Source: a candidate division Zixibacteria bacterium SM23_73_2 (GTDB lineage Bacteria; Zixibacteria; MSB-5A5; SM23-73-2). From it: a stretch of DNA of 12,595 nt. Both the position numbers and the translations under genes were made by a program. Under the pieces are notes generated by a model. The model was not told where the DNA came from. It saw only the letters and a program-made list of their open reading frames with translations, and ran no database searches. This document shows positions 208 to 9,311 of this stretch, piece by piece (the first letter of the stretch is position 1; each line of letters opens with the position of its first letter). The DNA lies in NCBI GenBank assembly GCA_001304315.1, contig LJUW01000063.1, positions 1 through 12,595 of the forward strand, in the 5' to 3' direction.

Positions 208-534
208 AAATCCTCCTTTGAAATTGAAATATTAACTACTTGTGAAATTCTGTCTGAATGTTATGCAACAATTAAGAATATGTTGTGGAATCCCCCATCT
301 TATTTTATCGGTTATAAACGGAAAAGGTGAAAGGGCTGTGCAAAAAATTGAAAATTCAATCTTTAATTAATCTTCAACCTAAAGATAGTAATTTTCTTGT
401 TTATAAGATTAGATGCTATTCTGGGAATCTATGTACTTTTTTATAAATTTCACAAAAAAATAGTAAAGGTACAAGGTATCCACCTTTTTATATTAGATAC
501 AGGTAGGTCGGATCTCCAAATCTGACTACAGGAA

Positions 535-585
535 AGTCGATTTTAGAAAATCGATCCAAAGGATCAATCCTTCGGATCGACCTAC
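535..585. repeat. Left copy of a 26-bp direct repeat (AGTCGATTTTAGAAAATCGA + CCTACT), interrupted by a 22-bp hairpin insert (555-576)
   Basis: An exact 20-mer AGTCGATTTTAGAAAATCGA (535-554) recurs at 767-786. The 10-mer TCGACCTACT recurs at 576-585 and 783-792. With 555-576 removed, the two copies are identical over 26 nt. The 20-mer contains the inverted repeat TCGATTTT-AG-AAAATCGA. The insert TCCAAAGGATCAATCCTTCGGATCGA can fold as a nested hairpin (TCGATCC..GGATCGA outside, AGGAT-CAA-TCCT inside), and TCGA is duplicated at its edges. Confidence 0.6.
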
Positions 586-604: not shown

Positions 605-652
605 CGCCAGGTCAGCCTACTCCTGGCCAGGGGGTGACCTGGTGGGCACAAG
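605..652 (+). ncRNA. GC-rich extended hairpin motif, copy A (GCCAGGTCAGCCT ... GCACAAG); candidate structured RNA or REP-like element
   Basis: CCAGGTCA (607-614) pairs perfectly with TGACCTGG (635-642). Inner pairs are CC/GG and CCT-GGCC-AGG. The region is about 70% GC against an AT-rich background. The 13-mer GCCAGGTCAGCCT (606-618) and GCACAAG (646-652) both recur at 8647-8704. A T5 run follows at 656-660. Confidence 0.3.
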
Positions 653-766: not shown

Positions 767-792
767 AGTCGATTTTAGAAAATCGACCTACT
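767..792. repeat. Right, uninterrupted copy of the 26-bp direct repeat (AGTCGATTTTAGAAAATCGACCTACT)
   Basis: Exact match to 535-554 plus 577-585. The arms GTCGATTTT/AAAATCGAC form a 9-bp inverted repeat. It lies 232 bp downstream of the left copy. Confidence 0.6.
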
Positions 793-4139: not shown

Positions 4140-4193
4140 TTCCATTTACAAATAAATGAAAATATTTTTTGATTAAAAAAGTTATTTTGTGCT

Positions 4194-4213
4194 GTCGGGA
4201 GTTACCTCCCGAC
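4194..4213. promoter_or_regulatory. Palindrome GTCGGGAG-TTAC-CTCCCGAC in the hutU-hutI spacer
   Basis: Perfect 8-bp arms with a 4-nt centre. No U-tract follows, so it is not a terminator. Same family as 2339-2359. Confidence 0.4.
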
Positions 4214-4222
4214 GGTATAAGC

Positions 4223-4242
4223 GTCAGGAGGAAACTCCTGAC
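4223..4242. promoter_or_regulatory. Palindrome GTCAGGAG-GAAA-CTCCTGAC in the hutU-hutI spacer
   Basis: Perfect 8-bp arms with a GAAA centre. Its start is 29 bp from the previous copy. No U-tract follows. Confidence 0.4.
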
Positions 4243-4275
4243 ACCACCAAAGAGAAAACTTTTGTTCAAATGTAA

Positions 4276-8299: not shown

Positions 8300-8557
8300 A
8301 TGCCGGAGGAAGAGGTTGGAAAGATTTCCGATTACTTCGCCAAGATCGGCGTTGCCGCGATCGAGTTAACCGGGACTCTATCCGTTGGCGATACCATTCA
8401 CATCAAAGGTCATACCACCGATTTCACCCAGAATGTGGATTCGATACAGATCGAGCACCAGCAAGTTGAAAAGGCCAATCCCGGCGATTCAATCGGAATC
8501 AAAGTAAAGGACCGGGTAAGGGATAACGATATCGTTTACAAGGTGACCGAGGAGTAA
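8300..8557 (+). CDS. Small standalone beta-barrel protein resembling translation-factor domain II (EF-Tu D2-like)
   Basis: The 85-aa product has VGDTIHIKG...VDSIQIEHQQVEKANPGDSIGIKV...VRDNDIVYKV, which follows the G.V..G....GD...I......V.SI......V..A..GD..G..L pattern of EF-Tu/IF2/SelB domain II barrels. RBS AGGAGG is present. It starts 18 nt after the SPFH gene. Confidence 0.5.
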   Translation: MPEEEVGKISDYFAKIGVAAIELTGTLSVGDTIHIKGHTTDFTQNVDSIQIEHQQVEKANPGDSIGIKVKDRVRDNDIVYKVTEE

Positions 8558-8618
8558 AAGCTTTAGAATTATTGATTTTAACTTTTGTTTACACTCCAAT
8601 GTTATCTAAGTGCCTGAC

Positions 8619-8704
8619 GAGTCACCCGACTCGAGAGGGTTCGTCCGCCAGGTCAGCCTGCCCCAGGTCGGGCAGGCCGGTCAGGGAAACCTGGGGAGCA
8701 CAAG
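8619..8704 (+). ncRNA. Structured GC-rich leader, copy B of the GCCAGGTCAGCCT...GCACAAG motif, upstream of the 8731 CDS
   Basis: It contains hairpins CGAGTC-ACCC-GACTCG (8619-8634), GCCTGCCC-caggtc-GGGCAGGC (8656-8677) and UCAGG-GAAA-CCUGG (8681-8694). It shares the 13-mer GCCAGGTCAGCCT (8647-8659) and GCACAAG (8698-8704) with 606-652. It ends 26 nt before the ATG. Confidence 0.3.
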
Positions 8705-8730
8705 ACCGAAATTGTTAAAAAAGGCTAAAG

Positions 8731-9237
8731 ATGATTAATTTGGATGACCTTTCCCGCAAACAGCTTGTCGGGATGCTGGATGATTTTGCCAAAAACTGGC
8801 TGGCTCACGATGGCTTGTGGTTTCAGGCGGTGGAGAAAAGATACGGGATGGATGTCGCCATCCAGTGCGACAGAGCTGCCTGGGAACACTTTACCGTTAT
8901 CGAGGCGAAAAGGATAATGAAACGCCATAACATACCCCAGGGAAGCGGGCTTTCCGGATTGAAAAAAGCTCTGGGATACCGGCTTTACAGCAGATTGAAC
9001 AAGCAGGAGATAATCGAGGAGAAAGAGAGAAGTTTTGTCTTCAGAATGAACGACTGCCGGGTTCAATCCGCACGCAAGAGAAGGGGACTTCTCGACTTTC
9101 CCTGCAAGCCAGTGGGAATAGTCGAATACAGTGAATTTGCTCGGGCGATCGATCCCAGGATCCGCACCACCTGCCTTAACTGCCCCCCGGATGAGCACCC
9201 GGATGAATTTTACTGCGCCTGGTTGTTTGAGATTTAA
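8731..9237 (+). CDS. Hypothetical cytosolic protein (168 aa) with a C-terminal Cys/His cluster (C..C...C.PPDEHPDEFYC)
   Basis: It has protein-like composition and runs into the bidirectional terminator at 9323-9358. The antisense ORF 8725-9240 is judged a shadow. No confident family assignment is possible. It resembles small DUF proteins with the WLAHDGLWFQAVE motif. Confidence 0.55.
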   Translation: MINLDDLSRKQLVGMLDDFAKNWLAHDGLWFQAVEKRYGMDVAIQCDRAAWEHFTVIEAKRIMKRHNIPQGSGLSGLKKALGYRLYSRLNKQEIIEEKERSFVFRMNDCRVQSARKRRGLLDFPCKPVGIVEYSEFARAIDPRIRTTCLNCPPDEHPDEFYCAWLFEI

Positions 9238-9261: not shown

Positions 9262-9311
9262 CCTCACCCCTTGCCCCTCTCCACTTGTGGAGAGGGGAAA
9301 CAGGGGTGAGG
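9262..9311. other. Compound GC-rich hairpin (about 22 bp: CCTCACCCCTTG/CAGGGGTGAGG outside, CCCCTCTCCA-cttg-TGGAGAGGGG inside)
   Basis: A perfect 10-bp inner stem (9274-9283 / 9288-9297) is stacked on an 11-12 bp outer stem (9262-9273 / 9301-9311) with a small internal loop. No U-tract lies on either side. Confidence 0.5.

Follow-up and report, generated by a model that had tools for sequence, protein, structure and literature searches.

A short palindromic intergenic repeat, a candidate of REP/REPIN-like type, in an uncultured Zixibacteria lineage

Introduction

REP elements are palindromes of about 20–40 nt that are strictly extragenic, occur in tens to hundreds of copies per genome and carry a GTAG or GGAG head. 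REPs and REPINs are mobilised by RAYTs, the REP-associated tyrosine transposases (Nunvar 2010; Bertels and Rainey 2011; PMC3116915, PMC3337134). The REPIN layout combines conserved ends with a middle of variable length, and REPINs and RAYTs are pictured as lineage-specific, vertically inherited repeat populations (PMC3337134). Other described systems that place hairpins in bacterial spacers are the MITEs (Correia, Nezha and RPE), the subterminal hairpins of IS200/IS605 elements with the PATEs derived from them, and riboswitches and other leaders.

The present study concerns a GC-rich hairpin found twice in the window, by which we mean the whole 12,595-nt stretch of DNA from the uncultured Zixibacteria lineage SM23_73_2 that was analysed. 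An earlier note on this DNA had offered three readings of the hairpin, namely a riboswitch or leader, an sRNA, or a REP-like genomic repeat, and it is the last of the three that our results favour. We give a probability of about 0.55 to the reading that the two copies, named A and B, are a short (48–59 nt), lineage-specific, palindromic intergenic DNA repeat resembling REPs and REPINs. Like these elements, A and B are short GC-rich imperfect palindromes confined to spacers, with conserved ends, a middle that varies in length and an inverted-doublet layout that is seen in A but degraded in B; their sequence is specific to a lineage, with turnover between related genomes; and other palindromic families lie in the same spacers, RAYTs with REPs of their own being present in related Zixibacteria. 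They differ from them in four respects. REPs number tens to hundreds against the two copies known here; no GTAG or GGAG 5' head is found at either end of A or B, GTAG being present only inside A, on the minus strand, at a position where B has GCAG; no cognate RAYT was recovered from SM23_73_2, and none is known that is flanked by A/B sequence; and A and B end in a conserved single-stranded 3' tail of 10 nt, nGrGCACAAG, that lies outside the palindrome. With no GTAG head, two known copies and no cognate RAYT recovered, the repeat would, in the strict sense, be a candidate REP only.

Results

Two related copies in the window

A window search found the 13-mer GCCAGGTCAGCCT exactly at 606–618 and 8647–8659, both times on the + strand as the earlier note had it; the shared exact word is in truth a 14-mer, CGCCAGGTCAGCCT, that starts at 605 and 8646, again on the + strand. 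The heptamer GCACAAG, which had been placed 40 or 51 nt downstream, is indeed there: its only two occurrences on either strand of the window are at 646–652 and 8698–8704, starting 40 nt (A) and 51 nt (B) past the start of the 13-mer. Copy A (605–652, +) is a unit of 48 nt made of CGCCAGGTCAGCCT, an 18-nt middle and ACCTGGTGGGCACAAG, and copy B (8646–8704, +) is a unit of 59 nt made of CGCCAGGTCAGCCT, a 29-nt middle and ACCTGGGGAGCACAAG; the common ends are CGCCAGGTCAGCCT and ACCTGGnGrGCACAAG. A covariance model built from the + strands of A and B (model R1) scored them at 71.3 and 87.9 bits, respectively.

In an alignment of A with B, 39 of 48 columns were identical, with one 11-nt indel. Their Smith-Waterman local score was 38, to be compared with a mean of 22.1 (sd 2.2) and a maximum of 33 when the rest of the window was shuffled 300 times with dinucleotide frequencies kept; an extreme-value extrapolation, corrected for the all-against-all search, gave a rough p ~ 0.01. 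The pattern CAGGTCAGCC-N(10–40)-CCTGGNNNGCACAAG matched A and B only in the window and was found in 0 of 200 shuffles. Because neither this score nor the joint pattern was reached by the shuffled sequences, A and B are related copies, beyond chance, and the preference of the earlier note for a real family over a coincidence was well founded.

These figures bear on the idea that A and B terminate transcription or protect 3' ends and look alike by convergence or chance, GC-rich stems having a limited vocabulary in an AT-rich genome. Many hairpins of this genome do share a GTC...GAC stem base, the fold z-scores given below are modest, and a repeated 14-mer alone is expected an estimated 0.6 times or so in a window of this size. 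However, the similarity extends over the 39 columns, the unpaired GCACAAG tail included, and neither the 300 score shuffles nor the 200 pattern shuffles reproduced it. Furthermore, neither A nor B was reported by the terminator scan, and both fail the intrinsic-terminator pattern because no U-run is adjacent to the stem: a T-run is found 12 nt past the stem of A, and B has none. We thus hold a convergent origin to be very unlikely.

Both copies are non-coding and lie in AT-rich spacers, as had been noted, with no plausible ORF, in keeping with the extragenic nature of REPs and REPINs. A coding remnant as the source of A and B was rejected; there is no open frame. Four CCWGG sites are found in A and three in B, spaced by about 15 nt. 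Base composition predicts about 16 CCWGG sites for the whole window, where 49 were observed; the seven of A and B are among these.

Anatomy and folding of the two copies

As read from the sequence, the left 13-nt unit of A (CGCCAGGTCAGCC, 605–617, +) pairs with 632–644, which on the minus strand reads CACCAGGTCACCC. This reverse complement agrees with the left unit in 11 of 13 positions, which makes A an inverted doublet. The unit measures about 13 nt, and the two units are separated by 14 nt centred on CCTGGCCAGG. The minus strand of A itself matched model R1 (22.1 bits, E = 0.005). The perfect 8-bp stem described earlier for A is present, with CCAGGTCA (607–614) paired with TGACCTGG (635–642), and it extends to 10 pairs, one of them G·U, between 605–614 and 635–644.

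Copy B can be read as this left unit followed by two more units, of the degenerate form CCAGGTC(R)G, and by an inverted right unit that is degraded, matching the left one at 8 of 11 positions and having AACCTGG as its right arm. Its outer stem has 6 bp, that is, six of the ten pairs of A are retained. An inner 8-bp hairpin (8656–8677, +) is formed by GCCTGCCC (8656–8663), the loop caggtc and GGGCAGGC (8670–8677), and a GAAA-capped stem, CAGG-GAAA-CCTG, is found at 8682–8693. These two stems had been reported before and do exist. The inner hairpin does not, as was then proposed, share its position with anything in A, being made partly of the 11 nt that are missing there. The GAAA-capped stem is an alternative to the outer stem common to both copies, with which it competes, and the minimum-energy fold does not contain it. 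Both copies are, as REPs are, short imperfect palindromes able to form a hairpin, with a stem of 8–10 bp in A and an outer stem of 6 bp plus an inner one of 8 bp in B.

On the two-sequence alignment, seven of the pairs of A are invariant in B, three are broken and none covaries. Compared with shuffles of matched composition, the fold energies are only modestly better, by 1–2.5 sd (on the + strand, z = -1.1 to -1.9). Copy A folds better on the + strand (-26.5 compared with -22.9 kcal/mol on the minus strand) and B on the minus strand (-34.5 compared with -29.3 kcal/mol on the + strand). Strand asymmetry of folding was rejected as a sign of RNA-level selection, A and B being in disagreement.

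The surroundings of copy A

Copy A is located in the 718-nt divergent spacer at 208–925, 274 nt upstream of the pspC ATG. A terminator-like hairpin on the + strand (665–697; a 12-bp stem at 665–690, then TTTTT) follows 13 nt after A, and a second one, on the minus strand (726–701), lies between A and pspC. Further downstream of A is a perfect sigma-70 consensus promoter for pspC (TTGACA-16 nt-TATAAT, 811–838, +). Because the terminator-like hairpins and this promoter come between A and the gene, A is not in the pspC leader. The fold of the 111 nt at 590–700 has a z of -5.4, mostly owed to the 665–697 terminator.

The perfect sigma-70 promoter, about 90 nt upstream of pspC, is found here in a host whose phylum belongs to the FCB group. 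The same spacer also holds GTAGGTCG(G)AT heads at 503–514 (+), 574–585 (-) and 768–791 (-), combined with palindromes at 537–554 and 768–787 that read GTCGATTTT-ag-AAAATCGAC; the GTAGGTCG heads at 503 and 585 form an inverted doublet just upstream of A. These heads resemble the GTAG head of classical REPs, such as GTAGGCCGGAT... in E. coli.

The position of A matters for the view that the repeat is a DNA operator, in which a DNA-binding protein, dimeric or oligomeric, would recognise the quasi-palindrome CCAGGTCA...TGACCTGG, with a CCWGG site every 15 nt or so, and thereby regulate the neighbouring genes jointly or organise the nucleoid. It would account for the near symmetry of A on its two strands, for the four and three CCWGG sites of A and B with their spacing of about 15 nt, and for the location of both copies upstream of genes. 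Yet B, with AACCTGG for a right arm and two or three of the pairs disrupted, has lost the symmetry, the spacing of the arms differs by 11 bp between the copies, and two terminator-like hairpins separate A from the pspC -35 box, which is found about 160 bp downstream of it. The absence of conservation in relatives also argues against an operator, and the window-wide over-representation of CCWGG (49 against 16 expected) makes the clustering less special. We regard this view as highly improbable.

The surroundings of copy B

Copy B ends 27 nt before the start codon of a DUF6125 gene whose protein is 100% identical to AMJ90_07685. It is part of a GC-rich island (8611–8707) that also contains an upstream hairpin, CGAGTC-accc-GACTCG (8619–8634), and to which nothing in the spacers of relatives corresponds. 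Of the DUF6125 spacer, only a conserved, promoter-like segment of about 45 nt at 8558–8601 is alignable with the related contig L008. As B lies downstream of this segment and before the start codon, it is probably transcribed in the DUF6125 leader.

Directly upstream of DUF6125, in the window (8300–9237) as in L008, L011, L061 and L062, a gene encodes a protein of 85 aa that weakly resembles domain 2 of EF-Tu; the two form a conserved gene pair across the Zixibacteria relatives.

Copy B is identical in 10 of 10 near-identical strain contigs (at least 99.9% identity), a set too close to the window to inform on polymorphism. Several strain contigs from independent assemblies (L077–L081) stop in or just past the spacer of B, which is consistent with repeats breaking assemblies.

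The repeat is absent from related Zixibacteria

We compared the window with six related contigs, five of which (L008, L061, L062, L011 and L013) carry DUF6125, the sixth (L073) carrying pspC and hut genes. The gene order of L008 is the same as that of the window (pspC, liaF-like, hutU, hutI, lptE, porV, the 85-aa gene, DUF6125). The DUF6125 protein is 83% identical to that of the window in L008, 84% in L061 and L062, and 77–84% over the five relatives; across Zixibacteria and Marinimicrobia the protein is conserved at 70–84% identity. The motif was absent from all six contigs, whether exact words, fuzzy matching or the covariance model was used, L073 being judged by reading its spacers only. 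Upstream of DUF6125, where the spacer is orthologous, it was missing in five of five (L008, L061, L062, L011, L013), and it was equally missing before pspC in L008 and L073; these two spacers follow a different upstream gene and so are not orthologous in the strict sense. The spacers of the relatives carry GC-rich palindromes of other sequence.

Because the motif is absent in the relatives, the reading of a conserved leader, or of a riboswitch, finds no support for either DUF6125 or pspC; a conserved DUF6125 leader, in particular, was rejected on the five relatives that lack the motif. A MAFFT alignment suggested a clean insertion of B, but in a pairwise test the 3' half of the spacer was not significantly alignable. 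We therefore do not claim a clean insertion, and state that the GC-rich island of B has no counterpart in the relatives. On the contigs compared, the repeat is specific to the SM23_73_2 lineage.

A rival reading is that of a functional RNA restricted to this lineage. It would be read from the + strand, B acting as a structured 5' leader of DUF6125 and A as part of an sRNA ending at 665–697, with the hairpin and the single-stranded GCACAAG as a binding or processing site. Several features are in line with it: A and B are on the same strand as the genes that flank them, A is followed after 13 nt by a strong hairpin with a T-run in a divergent spacer, a place where a terminator would imply an independent transcript, B lies between the promoter-like 8558–8601 segment and the start codon and is probably transcribed, and conserved ends around a variable middle are what a hairpin with a variable apex would show. 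Against it stand the lack of any Rfam match (see below), the absence of the motif before a DUF6125 gene whose protein is 77–84% identical in five relatives and before pspC in L008 and L073, the zero covariation with 3 of the 10 stem pairs of A broken in B and uncompensated, fold energies barely better than those of shuffles with B folding better on its minus strand, and the fact that the two downstream genes are functionally unrelated, A being outside the pspC transcript. The orientation of both copies, which is that of the downstream genes, is expected of a transcribed functional element and is weak with n = 2. Overall, we consider a functional RNA of this kind unlikely.

Searches for known families and further copies

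Rfam 15, run on the window at gathering thresholds, gave no match, and at E values up to 10 the two loci returned noise only, at 22 bits or less and far below the cut-offs. Rfam found nothing either on contigs L063, L067 and L072, from the same population or sample, and a tRNA/tmRNA scan detected no genes. By eye, and against consensus sequences, a sigma-54 promoter, an attC site, a dif site and a tRNA-like T-arm were considered, and none fits.

A pattern scan of GTDB representative genomes gave four matches, all in high-GC coding DNA of unrelated phyla and at about the chance expectation; metagenome contigs gave 45, chance-like, on high-GC contigs and with the AAG tail in none of them; viral contigs gave none. 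The metagenome scan did not return the JGI contigs L075 and L076 (3300002052 and 3300027901), which bear B. Since these were missed, the source population evidently lies outside the scanned collection, and the negative results therefore set no limit to the number of copies in the genome. A search baited with the dockerin tail of a protein encoded in the window yielded the SM23_73_2 contigs L063 and L067 (and overlapping ones), and L072 from the same sample. Model R1 found no third copy in about 124 kb of Zixibacteria loci, of which about 28 kb came from further contigs of this population or sample. The known copies are thus two, both within the 12.6-kb window.

Other palindromic families and RAYTs

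At least four other families of palindromic hairpins were found in the spacers of the window, three of which were met again on further contigs from this population or sample. Family Y is a double hairpin, TGTGCTGTCGGGAG-ttac-CTCCCGAC ... GTCAGGAG-gaaa-CTCCTGACACCAC, in the hutU-hutI spacer (4187–4246); it recurs almost identically, in the same genome and after an unrelated gene, at L069 722–786 (also L067 2730–2793), with a score of 89 compared with 17.6±2.2 for shuffles. Family Z (2340–2407) is an inverted doublet with a REPIN-like layout, CACGAG-caaga-CTCGTG followed by CTATC...GATAG and then CCAG-tcttg-CTGG, and recurs downstream of a different gene in L072 (1951–2018; score 57 compared with 18.1±2.8). 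Family W is a nested palindrome, CCTCACCCCT..CCCCTCTCCAC-tt-GTGGAGAGGGG..AGGGGTGAGG, located at 9262–9311, where the DUF6125 and beta-helix/dockerin genes converge; a copy that has diverged from it, with compensating changes, is present at L063 5645–5697 (score 34 compared with 18.1±2.4, maximum 32).

Family X, of 110–140 nt, consists of four hairpins closed by GGAGTGT...ACACTCC and has no Rfam match. Its copies are at L067 2860–2968 (+) and L063 11556–11415 (-), with a short one at L063 11413–11354 (-), and they show compensatory differences (AAACCC/GGGTTT and AAATCC/GGATTT; GTTAGCCT/AGGCTAAC and GTCAGCCT/AGGCTGAC). The word CCAGGTyAGCCT is common to the A/B repeat and Family X, with p ~0.02–0.04 against L063 and no significance against L067; a link between them on this basis is marginal and was not relied on. 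A GTC...GAC stem base is common to many otherwise unrelated hairpins (GTCGGGAG, GTCAGGAG, GTCACGAG, GTCAAGCT, GTCAGGC, GTCAGCCT, GTCGATTTT).

Genes for RAYT-type Y1 transposases (PF01797) are present in the related Zixibacteria contigs L008, L011, L060, L061 and L073. L060 was retrieved, by way of homologues of a relative's RAYT, in the search for a RAYT of SM23_73_2 itself, and proved to come from another assembly. The RAYT regions, often beside the hut/DUF6125 block, are at L008 17650–18400, L011 12840–13660, L061 5500–6500 and L073 9850–10570. These RAYTs are flanked by REPs of their own that differ between lineages and are unlike A and B (for example GTAGGGGTCGCATTCATGCGACCC..., GTAGCCGCAATCTTCAGATTGCG... 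and CCCCACCTTGTGGGCAAGGTGGGG), an arrangement that, as analysed here, fits the REPIN-RAYT picture outlined in the Introduction.

Discussion

Among the described systems other than REPs and REPINs, MITEs resemble A and B in being small, non-coding, intergenic and hairpin-forming, and in being present or absent between related genomes. Unlike MITEs, A and B have no terminal inverted repeats, their inverted repeat being subterminal with the 10-nt 3' tail, GCACAAG included, outside it; no target-site duplication is seen, the flanks being ACCA|...|CTGT for A and CGTC|...|ACCG for B; and at 48–59 nt they are shorter than most MITEs. The subterminal hairpins of IS200/IS605 elements, and the derived PATEs, come close in another way, since they too combine a hairpin with a conserved single-stranded segment at a fixed distance from the foot of the stem, and copies of such ends keep the same orientation on one strand; in contrast to them, A and B have no tnpA or tnpB nearby. 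The view that a single IS200/IS605-like element has A as its left end and B as its right end was rejected because the intervening 8 kb is syntenic housekeeping DNA in L008, which lacks the motif. With riboswitches and leaders the likeness concerns B only, which is structured, rich in GC and close to the gene that follows it; the differences are the unrelated downstream genes and the lack of an Rfam match, of conserved orthologous leaders and of covariation. The riboswitch or leader option of the earlier note, which is further weakened by the separation of A from pspC, is not supported.

The reading we prefer remains that of a REP/REPIN-like DNA repeat. Its basic unit would be a word of about 13 nt, C(G/A)CCAGGTCA(G/C)CC, the hairpin arising from an inverted doublet as in A, with a variable middle and the conserved 3' tail GCACAAG. 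The repeat would have spread as DNA within the SM23_73_2 lineage, most likely moved, in the manner of REPINs, by a RAYT-type (IS200/IS605-like Y1) transposase that takes the hairpin in single-stranded form as its substrate; recombination among the repeats may be an alternative. After insertion the copies would be transcribed passively, B in the 5' leader of DUF6125 and A in a short unit ending at the 665–697 terminator, and the hairpin, once transcribed, may have incidental effects on the stability of the RNA or on read-through. It would not be a sensor of ligands or proteins dedicated to the genes downstream.

We also considered a bolder proposal, in which the hairpin and GCACAAG together are an RNA or single-stranded DNA recognition module specific to the Zixibacteria lineage, either a processing or binding site common to an sRNA (A) and the DUF6125 leader (B), or the substrate of a non-canonical RAYT that would use the 3' tail and not a GTAG head. 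We think it quite unlikely; if true, the GTC...GAC hairpin families would be a single co-evolving system, undescribed in this phylum.

The GC-rich hairpin in front of DUF6125 resembles a riboswitch candidate, and it is the comparison with relatives that points to a lineage-specific insertion and so avoids a mis-annotation. In the literature searched we found no description of REP/RAYT systems in this phylum. The A/B repeat is ordinary in kind and is added to the class of short palindromic intergenic repeats. It belongs to an uncultured Zixibacteria lineage whose spacers are packed with several palindromic repeat families that turn over fast. Repeat systems of this sort affect the assembly of MAGs, are natural markers for strain typing and offer material for the study of REPIN-RAYT co-evolution outside Proteobacteria.
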